Origin: an uncultured Bacteriovoracaceae bacterium
GTDB lineage: Bacteria > Bdellovibrionota > UBA2428
Direction of reading: 5' to 3'
DNA length: 64,000 nt
Assembly (NCBI GenBank): GCA_964538275.1
Contig: CAZIFW010000006.1
Coordinates: forward strand, 5,826-69,825
The notes below the pieces were generated by a model. That model searched no databases. It was not told where the DNA came from and saw nothing but the letters and a program-made list of their open reading frames with translations. Shown here in pieces: positions 11,230 to 15,212 of the stretch; position 1 is the stretch's first letter; the number at the start of each line of letters is the position of its first letter. A program made the position numbers and the translations under genes.

Positions 11230-12957
11230 ATGAATTTTAAATCCTTTATTTTATTTTTATCTTTGTTATCTTTAATTAACTGCTCAAAAAAAGATGAAAA
11301 CACTCCAGTAACTTCCAGCTCAAGTTTTTATAAGGATCTATATGAAATAGAGCGGAGGCAGGGCCAGCAAGATCGCAAAGATTTTATAGAAGCTGGGTTT
11401 GAATCCAATCAGATTTTCGCAAAATCACAATTAAAATTAGCAGAAGTCGATGAATATGCAGAGTTAGTACTTTCAAATCTTCAAAAAATCGAATCAAAGA
11501 ACTATGAAGTTCTAAGTGCTTTGGAATCTGATATAAAAATAAATGATGAAGTGATTCAAAAAGCATTGGCTTCAATTAGTGATCTCGAAGAACTTTTATC
11601 TAGCCAAGAGAGCCGTTCCATTATCGCAAAAAACTTTCAGCTTTATTATTCTAAAGAATCTAGGGATGGTGCACACGCAAGATGGGAAAAAATAGTAGAT
11701 GCACGCTTACAAAGAATGTCTGGTCTTCGTAATCTTTTCTTAAGAATTGGATATGACTCTAAGATTCATGCACGCACTCTTTGCGCACAGAAAAACTGGC
11801 AAGTTTTAGATTTGTTTGCTTACAAAACTGACGACTATGCTACTCGCAAAGAAAGTTTGGCTTCAAATAGCGGCACGGTTCAAGGGGTTGTGCGAGCACA
11901 AAATGGAATTGACCCAGTTTCTGGCGCACTTGTCTATATACCTACAAAAGGAAATGAAGAGCTTGTTCCATTTGCAAAAGAAATTCGCGAAGCAAACAAA
12001 GGCGTGGTTGGAGTTGGCGAACCTAGCGAAGAGTACATTGCTAAAACTGGAACAACGGAAACGGGTGAATTTAAATTCGTGGCCATCCCTGAGGGAAATC
12101 GAAGTCTTGTAGTAAAAGTAGGCCCTTATGAGCGTCGTTCCGTTACTCCAGTTGTAAAAGGCAAGGTAGCTATGGTCGCTTCTGAAGCTTCAACTTTGCC
12201 TAAAATATCTGATGAGAATTCTAAAGTCGCAAAAATTACAGTATTCACAGGATCCTATGATCACTTAGAAAATGTACTCAGCAAAATTGGTATTGCTCCA
12301 AAGACATTAGAAAGTACTGATACTTTTTCGCTTAAATCGACATCTGCGCAATTTTTATCTTTGGCATCTGATCCTGAAAAATTAAAAGCTGCTGACTTGG
12401 TTATGATTAACTGCGGATTTCAAGGGGAGCTACACCTTAAAAACGCAACTATCAGATCAAATTTGCGTGATTACGTAAATAATGGTGGAAGTCTTTTTGT
12501 AACAGACTTGGCTTATGATGTTGTTGAACAAGTATTTCCTGAGTTTATTAATTTTGAGGGTGATGTTGATCCCACAATTTCTAGTCCCATGGGTTTAGCC
12601 GAAAAAGGCTCATCAGGTGTGACTTATTCTGCGGGTATTCCCGAGTTAAACTTAAAGCTCTGGCTTAAGTCAGCTGTAAAATGTGGCAACACTGCTAACC
12701 CAACAGAAAGTTGTTTAAATGCAAAAGAACAAGTTGACATCCAAGGTTTTGCAGGAGGCTGGGCAATGATGAATTCCGTGATTGCCCCGACACGCACTTG
12801 GGTGGAAAATTCTGAACGTCCACTTACAGCGACTTTTGCTTTAGGAAAAGGTAAAGTGTTTTACTCATCGTATCACACCGTTCATGACAATAATGCCAAT
12901 AGTCTCTTTCCTCAGGAAAGAATTCTGCAGTATTTTGTTTTAGAAGTTCTAAAATAG
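11230..12957 (+). CDS. Large hypothetical lipoprotein, 575 aa.
   Basis: Lipobox LINC|SKK. A coiled N-terminal region. A central region resembling a carboxypeptidase-regulatory-like beta-sandwich (SGTVQGVVRAQNGIDPVSGALVYIPT). No catalytic motif recognised. The gene is AT-rich by eye. Confidence 0.55.
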   Translation: MNFKSFILFLSLLSLINCSKKDENTPVTSSSSFYKDLYEIERRQGQQDRKDFIEAGFESNQIFAKSQLKLAEVDEYAELVLSNLQKIESKNYEVLSALESDIKINDEVIQKALASISDLEELLSSQESRSIIAKNFQLYYSKESRDGAHARWEKIVDARLQRMSGLRNLFLRIGYDSKIHARTLCAQKNWQVLDLFAYKTDDYATRKESLASNSGTVQGVVRAQNGIDPVSGALVYIPTKGNEELVPFAKEIREANKGVVGVGEPSEEYIAKTGTTETGEFKFVAIPEGNRSLVVKVGPYERRSVTPVVKGKVAMVASEASTLPKISDENSKVAKITVFTGSYDHLENVLSKIGIAPKTLESTDTFSLKSTSAQFLSLASDPEKLKAADLVMINCGFQGELHLKNATIRSNLRDYVNNGGSLFVTDLAYDVVEQVFPEFINFEGDVDPTISSPMGLAEKGSSGVTYSAGIPELNLKLWLKSAVKCGNTANPTESCLNAKEQVDIQGFAGGWAMMNSVIAPTRTWVENSERPLTATFALGKGKVFYSSYHTVHDNNANSLFPQERILQYFVLEVLK

Positions 12958-12966
12958 GTTGAGTCG

Positions 12967-13767
12967 GTGGCTAATCCTAATCACCGCACTTTATTTCAAG
13001 GAATAAAAATAATTCCAGCTTTTTGTAAAAGTTTAATCTTTCTAAGTTTTTTGTCCATAGCAAGTGCAGGGAATGTTGGGTCAAAGATAGGTCATGCTTC
13101 TCGAAGAGGCTGTTTGTACGCCTTAGGGATTGTCTCAGACACAGAAAGTACATTTGTTGCATTATCAAAGGGGGTACAGATGCTAACACTTGCGCCCGTT
13201 GGAAAATTATTAAATCTTCAACCTTCTGATTATGCGACTTTTACGGGTAGAGTCTATGACCCTATTACAAATCAAAATTTTGTAGTTACTGGAAGATATT
13301 TAACGACTCTAAGTTCTTTGGGGCTGCTGGGGTATGATTTTCGAAATAAACAAATTGCTACTGTTGCAAGTGGTTCAAGTCGCTTGGGGCAAGGGATAAA
13401 TTTAGCTTACTCAAGCACTGGGACAGTTGTTACCTCTGTAGATCTTTATTCGGAGGGAGTGCATATAATAAAAGGCAAGTCTAACTTTGTTAAAGGGAGT
13501 GCCTTTGATATTCCCTTACCTGATAAAAGTCAGGATTTATCTATAAGCCACTGGTTCTTAGATTATTTGAAGTTTGAAGAAGCTGTAATATTTTTGGATC
13601 AAATGGTACGAATCACTAAAGATGGCGGTGAAATTCGTTTGGGCACTCTTTCGCCTGTTCAGGATGCAGATGAGTTGCGTACGAAATTATTAGAGAATCC
13701 GCGAGTTGAAAGCATTGAGGGTTTTAGATCACTACCTACGGGTTATATTCAAATTAAGCTTAAGTAA
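12967..13767 (+). CDS. Secreted class-I SAM-methyltransferase-like protein with a degenerate SAM-binding motif I.
   Basis: Signal-like N-terminus. The C-terminal half matches Methyltransf_11 motifs II and III (GSAFDIPLPDKSQDLSISHWF… and FLDQMVRITKDGGEIRL). No GxGxG motif I was found. It starts 10 nt after the upstream lipoprotein gene. Confidence 0.4.
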   Translation: MANPNHRTLFQGIKIIPAFCKSLIFLSFLSIASAGNVGSKIGHASRRGCLYALGIVSDTESTFVALSKGVQMLTLAPVGKLLNLQPSDYATFTGRVYDPITNQNFVVTGRYLTTLSSLGLLGYDFRNKQIATVASGSSRLGQGINLAYSSTGTVVTSVDLYSEGVHIIKGKSNFVKGSAFDIPLPDKSQDLSISHWFLDYLKFEEAVIFLDQMVRITKDGGEIRLGTLSPVQDADELRTKLLENPRVESIEGFRSLPTGYIQIKLK

Positions 13768-13831
13768 GGTGATCATTCTTTCCTTTTTTAAGGGGCTCTT
13801 TATCTTGCAAAAAATCCGTTAAACTAAAGTT

Positions 13832-14662
13832 ATGAGACCCTTTTTGAGTGCAGGTTTTTTACTCCTATCTGCTTGCTCAAGTTTTAATTCAGAACGCCAT
13901 TTAGCCTCTCAGTTGCCTGAACTGAAACTCCATTCAAAAGTTTTAAAAAATCCTAATAGCTTTAGATCGGGTTCTGATGAAAATGCAGTTCTTCTAAAAC
14001 TTTTTGCAGAATCTGAAAGAGCTTATGACTTGAGTGCTGACCCCGAAGACGATGCGGCCAAGCTTTATTTGGCTGTAAATCAAATCTTAGAGCACGCTCA
14101 GGATACTCCAGACTATGTTGCTAATTTGCTCAGCAAGCCAGAACTCATTGCTTTGCTTCATTACACTCAGAGAGGTTATCGGAATTTGAATTCGGCTCTT
14201 TGGGCAGGACAATTTGGAAGTGATCCCAAAATATTAGAAAAGAAAATTCTTGTGCTTCTTTCTGCTCTTAATAAATTGCCCTTCTATCAATCTCAAGTAT
14301 GGCGAGGTGAAATGTATTCTATATCCTCGGGAGAAAAGAAAGATCCTGTTTTAGCCAAGGAACGTTATGATTCATACGTTATAGGAGAAGAGTTTGTTGC
14401 TAAAGGTTTTTGGAGCACAACTAAAGCAACTCGCATTGAATCGCGAGGTCGTTTTTTAAGAAATGCTATGATCATTTATCGCATTCAATCTAAAACAGGT
14501 CGTAGTATCGAAGAGCTTTCTTATTATCCTGAAGAAGAAGAGGTACTCTTTTTGCCCAACACACGCTTTAAAGTTTTAGATAAAACAATACTCAAGCGGA
14601 TAGCTAACCAAGAATATCCATTTGATTATGCCTATGAAATCAAAATGGAAGAACTTGATTAG
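13832..14662 (+). CDS. Lipoprotein mono-ADP-ribosyltransferase of the C3/VIP2/iota-Ia 'R-S-E' class (ADPrib_exo_Tox-like).
   Basis: Lipobox LLSAC|S (Cys15). ART helix motif LHYTQRGYRNLNSALW (Y-T-x3-Y-x2-l-N-x2-L). Catalytic-Arg context QVWRGE (R158). STS-type motif KGFWSTTKA (S195-T196-T197). ARTT/EXE motif YYPEEEEVLFLPNTRFKV (E235-x-E237, nt 14534-14542). These were read directly from the translated sequence. Confidence 0.7.
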   Translation: MRPFLSAGFLLLSACSSFNSERHLASQLPELKLHSKVLKNPNSFRSGSDENAVLLKLFAESERAYDLSADPEDDAAKLYLAVNQILEHAQDTPDYVANLLSKPELIALLHYTQRGYRNLNSALWAGQFGSDPKILEKKILVLLSALNKLPFYQSQVWRGEMYSISSGEKKDPVLAKERYDSYVIGEEFVAKGFWSTTKATRIESRGRFLRNAMIIYRIQSKTGRSIEELSYYPEEEEVLFLPNTRFKVLDKTILKRIANQEYPFDYAYEIKMEELD

Positions 14663-14684
14663 CTTCACGCTTGAACATAAGTAG

Positions 14685-15212
14685 TTATTCTTTTACAGGT
14701 TCAAGTAACATGCTGGCAGTGCTTACAAGTTTCACGCCTAAGAGTTCAGTGCTTACAACTTCTAAGAGCATCTTTTTAGGAACGCCTTCCCAATCTTTAG
14801 CAATTACAATGGAGCGCACAGTTGAGACTGTAATCCTGTGATTTGATCCAACTACGTAGTTTTCGCCAAAAATATCGTTGGCATCACCCAAAGCACTACA
14901 AAAGGCACCACCCTCTTGTTTAACAATAAAGGCTTCATGGTGAGCTTTGACTCCAAAATCTACTGAACCATTGTGATTGAGTTCGGCTTGTCCGAATTGA
15001 AAATTTAAAACTTGAATAGCAGGTACTGCACAGGCGTAACCTTGAATATTTCTGATAAATGTATCTTCCTCAATCTCTAAAACTGTTTCGCGTTTGCTAT
15101 CAAGCAATACACTTTCTACAGAGATGATCTCTAGATCAAAATCAAAGCGAGCCTCTGCTGAAAAACTGAGCATTCCCAAAAGTAAAAAAAGTGAATATTT
15201 AAGTGTGTTCAT
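14685..15212 (-). CDS. Hypothetical secreted protein, 175 aa, convergent with the ART gene.
   Basis: Signal peptide MNTLKYSLFLLLGMLSFSAEA|R. No recognisable domain. Confidence 0.45.
   Translation of the reverse strand: MNTLKYSLFLLLGMLSFSAEARFDFDLEIISVESVLLDSKRETVLEIEEDTFIRNIQGYACAVPAIQVLNFQFGQAELNHNGSVDFGVKAHHEAFIVKQEGGAFCSALGDANDIFGENYVVGSNHRITVSTVRSIVIAKDWEGVPKKMLLEVVSTELLGVKLVSTASMLLEPVKE

Follow-up and report, generated by a model that had tools for sequence, protein, structure and literature searches.

A toxin-type ADP-ribosyltransferase with a predicted lipid anchor and an apparently changeable set of exported neighbours

Four open reading frames make up the locus described here, which lies in a 64-kb stretch of DNA that was analysed as a whole (the window), and all four are present as an earlier note on this DNA had described them. 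Two genes, for a 575-aa protein and a methyltransferase-like protein, precede the gene for an ADP-ribosyltransferase (ART), which is followed by a gene for a 175-aa protein (orf175). The coordinates of these genes and of their main sequence features are collected in Table 1.

Table 1. Features of the locus, with positions in the window
Feature	Position	Strand	Remark
Left copy of the 16-nt direct repeat, AAAAAATCCGCTAAAT	11085..11100	+	Directly after the mlaD stop codon
575-aa exported protein, found only in the window genome among five loci	11230..12957	+	Signal peptide; singleton cluster
Methyltransferase-like protein, 266 aa, exported, class I, degenerate motif I (A-S-G-S-S, residues 134-138)	12967..13767	+	PF08241
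Right copy of the 16-nt direct repeat, AAAAAATCCGTTAAAC	13809..13824	+	8 nt 5' of the ART ATG
ART precursor, 276 aa, R-S-E class mono-ADP-ribosyltransferase with lipoprotein signal	13832..14662	+	Conserved core of the locus
Lipoprotein signal peptide MRPFLSAGFLLLSA and predicted lipidated Cys15 (codon 13874-13876), Ser at +2	13832..13876	+	Passes a PS51257-type pattern
Helix motif Y111-T112-x7-N120 (HYTQRGYRNLN), N-terminal helical part of the ART fold	14162..14191	+	Y111, T112, and N120 invariant in alignment A1; aligns to Tre1 'YGYTtNEGYTALN'
Aromatic-Arg motif W157-R158, predicted NAD-binding Arg	14300..14305	+	Lines up with YRG in Tre1 and Vis
STS motif S195-T196-T197	14414..14422	+	S195 and T197 invariant in A1; aligns to Tre1 'STS'
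ARTT-loop E235-E236-E237, E-x-E, catalytic Glu at the third position	14534..14542	+	Invariant in A1; aligns to Tre1 E-A-E and the Vis motif
orf175, 175-aa exported orphan, signal peptide ending AEA|RF, conserved Cys C61 and C105	14685..15212	-	Convergent with ART; optional neighbour

The product of the ART gene has the full fold of an R-S-E mono-ADP-ribosyltransferase and all of the catalytic motifs. The earlier note had expected a match to PF03496 or PF01129, and both Pfam matches are above their cutoffs (E 6.8e-11 and 42.3 bits versus 23.4 for PF03496, and 27.7 bits versus 22.3 for PF01129). Sequence matches in the PDB are Tre1, Vis, XopAI, and HopU1, with which the motifs align one by one. 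The AF2 model has a pLDDT of 84, and a Foldseek search with this model gave 118 PDB matches at E <= 1e-3, of which the best 50 are all ARTs, in good agreement with the proposed fold. The hallmark motifs named earlier (helix, Arg, STS, and E-x-E) comprise Y111, T112, N120, R158, S195, T197, and E235-237, which are unchanged in seven homologues (alignment A1), and the residue numbers that had been assigned to R158, S195, and E235/E237 are correct (codons 14303-14305 for R158 and 14414-14416 for S195; STS motif as defined in PMC6829252). Moreover, R158 is kept in all 27 exported relatives, and the E-x-E motif is present in 26 of the 27. Among ARTs, E-x-E is the arginine-specific signature, whereas C3 exoenzymes carry a Q-x-E motif and target an asparagine of Rho; an arginine target can therefore be predicted for the window ART. 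The previous assignment to a C3/VIP2 class thus holds for the R-S-E type of the enzyme but not for a C3-like target. As judged from its sequence, the gene seems to code for an intact enzyme of the toxin type, which adds ADP-ribose to arginines.

The ART also carries a canonical predicted lipobox (LLSAC), which meets a PROSITE PS51257-type pattern and is conserved among its orthologues, in support of the lipoprotein signal that had been read at this N-terminus. The Cys is present in all five orthologues (LSAC, LSAC, LSAC, LVSC, and FISC), and none of the five has Asp at +2. Residues 1-27 show a pLDDT below 50 in the AF2 model, which fits a signal peptide followed by a flexible tether. Among about 105 short relatives of the ART, a lipobox is also found in about 13-18, and 47 others have a hydrophobic, signal-peptide-like N-terminus according to a crude test. 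The window encodes MlaDEF, BamB, and an OMP beta-barrel protein, indicating that the host is a diderm. In the literature searched, no described lipoprotein ART of the R-S-E class was found, which agrees with the earlier view that a lipidated ART is unusual; a toxin-type ART with a lipid-anchor signal is apparently an arrangement not yet described in this class of enzymes.

Tre1 of Serratia proteamaculans (PDB 6DRE and 6DRH), an interbacterial ART delivered by a T6SS that modifies an arginine of FtsZ, is the best PDB sequence match of the window ART (E 8.5e-8), and the two proteins align residue for residue over the helix motif, the Arg, STS, and E-x-E. However, Tre1 relies on T6SS delivery (PDB chain name, 'PAAR repeat-containing protein') and is co-encoded with an immunity protein of the ADP-ribosylhydrolase (ARH) type, whereas the window ART bears a lipoprotein signal and lacks both a T6SS adaptor domain and an ARH neighbour; neither an ADP-ribosylhydrolase nor a macrodomain was found among the ART neighbours or the other window ORFs scanned. 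HopU1 and XopAI (PDB 3U0J and 6K94) are T3SS effectors of plant pathogens that are secreted into eukaryotic cells. The binary toxins VIP2, iota-Ia, and C2-I are proteins of ~400-450 aa with two ART-like domains and require a separate binding component, while the window ART is a single domain within 276 aa and has no binding-component partner. In addition, these toxins and C3 are soluble secreted proteins, unlike the predicted lipoprotein of the window. The mammalian ecto-ARTs (ART1 and ART2.2; PF01129) are eukaryotic and disulfide-stabilised, have a C-terminal GPI anchor instead of an N-terminal acyl-Cys, and share just ~18% sequence identity with the window ART. A precedent for such an arrangement is seen in the APD1/APD2 proteins of Amoebophilus asiaticus, in which a signal peptide and lipobox immediately precede effector or toxin domains and for which display on the producer surface is predicted, according to the portion of Zhang et al. 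(2012; PMC3482391) concerned with them. As portrayed there, these proteins differ in belonging to another lineage and in pairing toxins that are C-terminal and polymorphic with a conserved APD pro-domain, and no ART version is described in that portion.

The locus was compared in five genomes, namely the window genome and four related metagenomic genomes (L002, L003, L008, and L009). The ART gene occupies the same site directly upstream of a DHH gene in all five, indicating that it is a long-term resident and no recent arrival, against the horizontal acquisition that the earlier note had proposed. The gene content varies among all five loci: orf175 is present in three, the methyltransferase-like gene in two, and the 575-aa gene in one, and this unequal presence points to different histories of the four genes. 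The order in the sister genome L002 is mlaD-ART-orf175-DHH, with the ART start 22 nt past mlaD and with both the 575-aa and methyltransferase-like genes missing; orf175 is absent from L008 and L009, where the order is ART-DHH; and in L003 the methyltransferase-like gene lies directly 5' of ART and a 534-aa gene lies between ART and orf175. A four-gene locus, as first described, is therefore not maintained among the relatives. Furthermore, the ART protein changes 5-10 times faster than the products of the flanking genes, with protein identities of 57-72% versus 93-98% and dN of 0.16-0.23 versus 0.013-0.046; dN/dS is well below 1, although with dS saturated it is a rough upper-level estimate. 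The faster evolution could be explained by relaxed constraint instead of an arms race. Stable, vertical inheritance next to housekeeping genes, as seen in the five genomes, would be in keeping with a physiological role, in which the anchored ART would modify the envelope or surface proteins of its own cell or hydrolyse external NAD+, as a regulatory or scavenging rather than offensive analogue of the GPI-anchored ecto-ARTs, and the ART of L002 could be co-transcribed with the mla operon from its position 22 nt after mlaD. We regard such a self-directed role as unlikely, since mlaD adjacency is not retained in L003, L008, and L009, the rate of change is unusual for a housekeeping regulator, and the nearest sequence relatives of known function, Tre1, Vis, and HopU1, are offensive effectors.

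The earlier note had also proposed orf175 as an immunity partner, such that the ART would threaten the envelope of its own producer and the convergent periplasmic protein would bind and inhibit it. The convergence was described correctly, but the stop-to-stop gap is 22 nt, not 23. This closeness, the export of both proteins, and the likewise fast evolution of orf175 (65-82% identity across loci) are in favour of a pair, as is the confinement of orf175 to ART-bearing contigs: only three homologues were found among 5.8 billion proteins, all on contigs bearing ART, and the two sets of contigs overlap exactly in 3/3 contigs with long enough context. Its dN/dS of 0.08-0.15 indicates that orf175 is a real gene. 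Moreover, binding-type and enzymatic immunity are known for other ARTs, as in Tre1/Tri1 (PDB 6DRE) and Bxa/Bsi/BAH (PMC11699363). Nevertheless, orf175 is missing from two of the five loci with an intact ART (L008 and L009), is separated from ART by the 534-aa gene in L003, and, being convergent, is not co-transcribed with it. It is unlike any known immunity family and has no match in Pfam, NCBIfam, or PDB; its AF2 model (pLDDT 38) is unusable. In addition, ARTs that leave by Sec become folded beyond the cytoplasm, in surroundings that lack NAD+, and self-protection of the producer is not expected to be necessary for classical Sec-dependent ART exotoxins. A toxin-immunity pair is thus distinctly improbable, while a looser functional link between orf175 and ART may exist.

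XopAI is both the top structural match and the sole NCBIfam match (E 2e-13) of the ART, and it has lost the Arg and STS motifs and does not bind NAD+, which is likewise not used when XopAI binds an Arg peptide (PMC6829252). R-S-E enzymes that modify DNA or tRNA also exist, including the pierisin-like group (PMC3482391) and a tRNA-modifying Rhs ART (PMC13617354). The window ART might accordingly act on a nucleic acid base, small molecule, or antibiotic, or be a non-catalytic arginine-peptide binder, to which we give a slim chance. It keeps the Arg, S-T-T, and E-x-E, where XopAI has FTG, AAS, and VLE, and its NCBIfam score of 50 against a cutoff of 300 indicates that it is not a XopAI equivalog.

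The methyltransferase-like ORF matches PF08241 (33.7 bits versus a cutoff of 21.2) and keeps Asp159 at the end of strand 2, in agreement with the secreted methyltransferase-like fold lacking GxGxG that had been noted; its one other homologue (79%, in L003) has a likewise signal-peptide-like N-terminus. For the 575-aa protein, no homologue was found in any related locus, and its Pfam matches are all sub-threshold, with weak similarity to a carboxypeptidase-regulatory-like domain. It had been called a lipoprotein, of which the signal peptide stands, but the putative lipobox LINC, with Asn at -1, is non-canonical and fails the PS51257-type pattern. Both genes are contained in a 2,724-bp indel bounded by the two 16-nt repeats, which are the only zero-mismatch occurrences in 64 kb; L002 has a single copy, which follows the mlaD stop and precedes the ART ATG. 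The AT bias of the block is real but small, and 'markedly more AT-rich' was too strong: its GC is 38.0% versus 41.5% for the window, it falls in the lowest 1.1% of same-length windows with 55.6-57.5 kb just as low, and GC3 of the four genes is 0.27-0.30, where genes average 0.35 (z -1.2 to -1.65). One horizontally acquired island, whose lipoprotein, methyltransferase, ART, and inhibitor act jointly, would suit this low GC3, the export signals on all four products, and the repeat-bounded gene pair absent from L002, but it is scarcely credible and largely refuted by the unequal presence of the genes across the five loci, with no integrase, transposase, or tRNA in the block, a GC deficit of just 3.5 points, and an ART GC3 that is not an outlier in L002, L003, L008, and L009. 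As a set, the three exported neighbours appear to be changeable rather than a toxin/immunity module of fixed makeup.

Collectively, we consider it probable that the ART is a Sec/Lol-exported, outer-membrane-anchored, arginine-specific enzyme that works outside the producer cytoplasm and has no obligate partners among its neighbours. The precursor would leave unfolded via Sec, Cys15 would be diacylated, and signal peptidase II would cleave. Transport to the outer membrane by the Lol pathway is suggested by Ser, Ala, or Thr, never Asp, at +2, although the +2 rule stems from E. coli, and this host may depart from it. The protein would then hang from a disordered tether of ~12 residues, and its folded domain would bind NAD+ via R158 and S195-T-T197 and would use E237, together with E235, to modify an arginine in a target protein with ADP-ribose. 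Because the ART would never be folded in the cytoplasm and the periplasm is without NAD+, the producer would need no immunity protein. The 575-aa, methyltransferase-like, and 175-aa proteins would be further exported members of a variable 'secretome islet'. No delivery machinery that would take the anchored ART to NAD+ and a target was seen within the 64-kb window. Since both are required, the enzyme would act only on or inside another cell or amid what lysed cells release. This other cell may be prey, a competitor, or a host, and the way to it may be surface display, vesicles, or contact.

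All four ORFs that the earlier note grouped into an AT-rich toxin locus are present between the mla operon and a DHH phosphoesterase gene, and the central one, here called ART, belongs to the R-S-E class of mono-ADP-ribosyltransferases, as had been proposed. The two Pfam families expected for it, PF03496 (ADPrib_exo_Tox; E 6.8e-11, 42.3 bits, gathering score 23.4) and PF01129 (27.7 bits, threshold 22.3), both match above their gathering scores. The helix motif, arginine, STS and E-x-E motifs were aligned position by position with the sequences of solved structures, the best PDB sequence matches being Tre1 of Serratia (6DRE, 6DRH; E ~1e-7), Vis (4XZJ), XopAI, HopU1, and SpvB. 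In the aromatic-Arg motif W157-R158-G, which in this class lies on strand 1 and supplies the NAD-binding Arg, R158 is invariant in all seven homologues and in 27 of 27 exported relatives, and the residue before it varies among the orthologues (W, R, L, I). The STS motif, defined as S-[TS]-[STQ] (PMC6829252), reads S195-T196-T197, with S195 and T197 invariant in the homologue alignment, and the ARTT loop, E235-E236-E237, is likewise invariant and fits [QE]-x-E. An AF2 model built from the seven homologues (pLDDT 84.3, pTM 0.81; disorder confined to residues 1-27) agrees with this assignment, showing the beta-sandwich core and N-terminal helices of the ART fold.

Features of the window discussed in the text
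Feature	Position	Strand	Length or remark
165-aa ORF	1340-1837	+	165 aa
1,093-aa ORF	2798-6079	-	1,093 aa
160-aa ORF	8252-8734	+	160 aa; heads mlaEFD operon
mlaE-mlaF-mlaD operon	8731-11086		upstream boundary of the four ORFs
16-nt repeat, first copy	11085-11100		AAAAAATCCGCTAAAT
575-aa ORF	11230-12957	+	575 aa
Methyltransferase-like ORF	12967-13767	+	266 aa, GTG start
16-nt repeat, second copy	13809-13824		AAAAAATCCGTTAAAC
ART	13832-14662	+	276 aa
Conserved ART segment	13913-13972		residues 28-47
orf175	14685-15212	-	175 aa
DHH/DHHA1 phosphoesterase gene	15413-16831		downstream boundary of the four ORFs
277-aa ORF	49747-50580	+	277 aa
AT-rich region	55600-57600		~37.7% GC
442-aa ORF	56178-57506	-	442 aa

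The narrower assignment to the C3/VIP2 class needs refinement. Comparison of the ART model with known structures gave figures, unlabelled in the comparison table, of 18.7 for XopAI, 17.4 for HopU1, 16.1 for Tre1, 13.6 for CPILE-a, 13.3 for VIP2, 13.2 for ExoS, 13.1 for both rat ecto-ART2.2 and Vis, and 11.9 for C3bot2; the nearest neighbours are thus the HopU1/XopAI/Tre1 group, not C3 or VIP2. An E-x-E in the ARTT loop goes with an arginine acceptor and a Q-x-E with asparagine, as in C3, so the E-x-E of ART points to arginine as its predicted acceptor. The Rho-modifying C3-like exoenzymes carry Q-x-E, whereas ART has E-x-E. The binary actin toxins (VIP2, iota-Ia, C2-I) have two tandem ART-like domains and a separate binding/translocation component, whereas ART is a single domain in 276 aa, and no neighbouring gene resembles such a component in Pfam and NCBIfam searches. 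Tre1/Tri1 pairs combine a T6SS delivery domain (PAAR, Rhs, or similar) with an adjacent ARH-type immunity gene; in contrast, the N-terminus of ART is a lipoprotein signal, and no ARH or macrodomain was found among its neighbours or the other scanned ORFs of the window. The XopAI model NF041404 is the sole NCBIfam match of ART, at 50 bits and far under its 300-bit cutoff. XopAI lacks the Arg and STS motifs and has a degenerate active site (FTG, AAS, VLE; PMC6829252), whereas the motifs of ART are intact, which sets ART apart from the XopAI equivalogs.

Directly after the signal peptide, residues 28-47 form a conserved segment that reads LPELKLxS in the ART family and is confidently modelled (pLDDT ~90), as a short hairpin that packs against the ART domain. 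In wider exported relatives (P0026-P0028, P0067, P0081, P0082, P0095, P0133) the segment reads PSGxxIDxxxY.

The lipoprotein signal noticed earlier was also confirmed. The N-terminus MRPFLSAGFLLLSAC15, whose charged residue is R2, satisfies a PROSITE PS51257-type lipobox rule (N-terminal K/R, uncharged h-region, [LIVMFWSTAG]2-LIVMFYSTAGCQ-[AGS]-C, with Cys at 15-35). The cysteine is kept in all five orthologues, preceded by LSA in three, LVS in one, and FIS in one; four of the five pass the strict rule, the fifth having its Cys at position 14, and no orthologue carries Asp at +2. When 1.84 billion representative proteins were searched with a profile, the relatives numbered 4,872 at E <= 1e-3, of which 704 reached E <= 1e-10 and 15 reached E <= 1e-30. 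The best 150 of the 4,872, sorted by crude home-made tests of N-terminal hydrophobicity and lipobox, comprise 43 long multidomain toxins and 107 short proteins. Among these short proteins the relaxed test found a lipobox-like Cys in 18 of 107 and the strict test in 13 of 105; a hydrophobic N-terminus resembling a signal peptide occurs in 47, and 42 have neither feature. The catalytic motifs are retained in 17 of the 18 lipobox-bearing proteins, and R, S, and E-x-E in 26 of 27 aligned exported relatives. Since lipoboxes occur in 13-18 of about 105 short relatives, predicted lipid-anchored ARTs are a recurrent architecture rather than a one-off. A literature search found no published description of a lipid-anchored ART; the closest precedent found is a set of effectors in Amoebophilus that are anchored through a lipobox (PMC3482391). 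MbovP579 of Mycoplasma bovis, a lipoprotein once suggested to be ART-like, was rejected as a precedent, because its resemblance to CDTa amounts to only 31% similarity across 84 residues (PMC5129939). One ART homologue, P0006 (34% identity), has a plain signal peptide and comes from an unrelated GC-rich (56%) genome; a DUF7790 protein follows it in all three contigs concerned (L004, L005, L006) and is possibly a partner conserved within that lineage.

A word-indexed collection of 5.8 billion clusters held only seven ART homologues, four of which (57-72% identity) occupy the identical site on the chromosome in related genomes from metagenomes. Sampling of the lineage is very thin: among ~15 billion proteins, the 90%-identity clusters of PdxS, UvrC, and MlaF hold only 3-4 members. 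The four related loci, designated L002, L003, L008, and L009, make five together with the window, and ART lies immediately upstream of DHH in all of them. In L002 the order is mlaD, ART, orf175(-), DHH. L003 reads mlaD, orf92(-), VWA lipoprotein(-), methyltransferase-like gene, ART, a 534-aa exported flavoprotein-like ORF, orf175(-), DHH. On the short contigs L008 and L009, an unrelated upstream gene is followed by ART and DHH, with orf175 absent. The accessory genes are accordingly patchy (orf175 in 3/5 loci, methyltransferase-like in 2/5, 575-aa in 1/5), and homologues of all three are absent from 21 distant metagenome loci with 27-42% ART identity. The four-gene island or module reading is therefore not supported. 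Every accessory gene product with a visible N-terminus has an export signal, and the mlaD-DHH region acts like a hotspot of genes for exported proteins, which come and go around one resident ART. In L003 the interval (7259-9008 and 10837-12441) encodes different exported proteins than in the window, among them the VWA-domain lipoprotein (lipobox VASAC) and a 92-aa secreted ORF; the 534-aa signal-peptide protein has a GxGxxA motif of the dinucleotide-binding type and faintly matches Pyr_redox_3.

The proposal that orf175 encodes an immunity protein or inhibitor of ART fared poorly. Its product carries a signal peptide, contains two conserved cysteines, and gave no detectable family or fold in Pfam and NCBIfam and no PDB sequence match even at E <= 10; an AF2 model from three sequences was unusable (pLDDT 38). 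The gene is convergent with ART, as described, but the stop codons are 22 rather than 23 nt apart. A strict, operonic association was not observed: orf175 accompanies ART in three of five loci, is convergent with it, and in L003 is separated from it by the 534-aa gene. Its absence from two ART loci (L008 and L009), its orientation, and the gene that intervenes in L003 all speak against immunity as an obligate role. A promoter and terminator scan gave nothing above shuffle expectation and no terminator between ART and orf175, and neither an ADP-ribosylhydrolase nor a macrodomain turned up in the block or the ~45 other scanned ORFs of the window.

The other two genes of the block are likewise not fixed neighbours of ART. 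The 266-aa protein has a signal-peptide-like N-terminus and passes PF08241 (Methyltransf_11; 33.7 bits, cutoff 21.2), and its motif I reads A-S-G-S-S (residues 134-138), in line with the lack of GxGxG noticed from the sequence; the motif is identical in the L003 orthologue, and Asp159 is retained. The 575-aa protein is a singleton with no PDB match and only sub-threshold Pfam matches. Its description as a lipoprotein does not hold, as the putative lipobox is non-canonical, with Asn at -1, and fails the PS51257-type rule.

These two genes are enclosed by two copies of a 16-nt direct repeat, spaced 2,724 bp apart, which are the only exact matches within 64 kb. In L002, a single copy (9979-9992) links the stop codon of mlaD with the ATG of ART, and the 2.7-kb segment is absent. 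Either the repeats mediated a deletion that left this indel, or the segment was inserted with duplication of its target. Flank identity makes the window and L002 sisters, with L003 as the outgroup; because L003 carries the methyltransferase-like gene, this gene is probably ancestral and would have been lost from L002 through deletion between the repeats. After the mlaD stop codon of L003 stands CATTTAGCG, the reverse complement of part of the 16-nt repeat.

ART and orf175 are genuine, constrained genes whose rate of evolution is 5-10 times that of their neighbours. Amino-acid identity across the loci is 91-98% for the flanking proteins PrpD, MlaE/F/D, DHH, and M32, compared with 57-72% for ART, 65-82% for orf175, and 76% for the methyltransferase-like protein, and dN is 0.16-0.23 for ART versus 0.013-0.046 for most flanks. 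The dN/dS ratio is well under 1 throughout; since synonymous sites are saturated everywhere (pS 0.5-0.76), it is not usable as a test of positive selection, and the comparison was made by dN ratios alone.

Composition is not uniform along the window, as the earlier note had judged by eye. The block has 38.0% GC against 41.5% for the window, placing it in the lowest 1.1% of same-length windows, and GC3 z-scores of its four genes are -1.2 to -1.65. The bias is genuine but small, and the region at 55.6-57.5 kb is equally low. In other genomes, ART lies 1-3 points below its flanks in GC and its GC3 is no outlier. For ART, the bias cannot signify recent acquisition, and the suggested horizontal transfer is contradicted by synteny: ART is present at this site in all five loci, and absence from a relative holds only for the 2.7-kb segment. 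A mobile or defence origin was likewise rejected, with no homologue in a plasmid search, no PADLOC match, and PHROG matches confined to ART domains that form part of phage head proteins. One distant relative (29% identity) lies on a viral contig, and a scan of genome contigs with ART yielded a Riflebacteria locus at 30% identity.

Taken with the block, the ~45 other ORFs of the window that were scanned resemble those of an unremarkable diderm chromosome, with BamB, an OMP barrel, and an rpsB-tsf-pyrH-frr-uppS-cdsA-rseP cluster. No T6SS or mobility gene was found in these ORFs or the block, and no rRNA, tRNA, or other Rfam match in the window. Several other ORFs have no Pfam match. The 442-aa ORF in the region that is as AT-rich as the ART block adjoins a 732-aa GSDH-domain protein; the 165-aa ORF has the highest AT content of any ORF in the window (33.9% GC, z -2.75); the 1,093-aa ORF adjoins DUF503 and prpD and has a 1,080-aa counterpart in the same position in L002; and the 160-aa ORF, with a lipobox-like N-terminus LLFASC|S, is 91-94% conserved in L002 and L003. 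The 277-aa ORF is unusual in composition (GC 50%, GC2 0.58, GC3 0.29) and weakly matches a class III (pilin-type) signal peptide.

Collectively, the sequence data indicate that ART is a genuine, probably active enzyme in an unusual, conserved, and predicted lipid-anchored format. From established pathways, the precursor would be exported unfolded via Sec and processed at Cys15 by Lgt, LspA, and Lnt, and because +2 is never Asp, it would be transferred by Lol to the outer membrane, with residues 16-27 serving as a flexible tether. The enzyme may catalyse NAD+-dependent, arginine-specific ADP-ribosylation. It would fold only outside the cytoplasm, where NAD+ is lacking, and therefore an immunity protein would be unneeded; activity would require that ART reach the contents or cytoplasm of another cell. 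Its fast evolution and its nearest characterised relatives, Tre1, Vis, and HopU1, favour such an outward-directed effector; a self-directed ecto-ART or NADase is a possible alternative. Beyond the outward-directed reading of this one protein, we offer only tentatively, as a rather unlikely generalization, that ART belongs to a class of bacterial arginine-specific ARTs that is both undescribed and fairly widespread. Its members would be attached to the outer membrane by an N-terminal lipid, would act as effectors displayed on the surface or delivered by vesicles or contact, would have no immunity partner, and would be the prokaryotic equivalent of GPI-anchored ecto-ARTs.

Work on ADP-ribosylating toxins deals with soluble exotoxins or with the cargo that injection machines deliver. 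An ART with intact catalysis that is held at the outer membrane by a lipid would need a different route to NAD+ and target, possibly through contact at the surface, through vesicles, or among the contents released by lysed cells, and the tethered format would also explain how ART is retained without an immunity gene. The family, being small, fast-evolving, and from a rarely sampled lineage, makes a compact test case, with one gene and clear catalytic and lipidation mutants.
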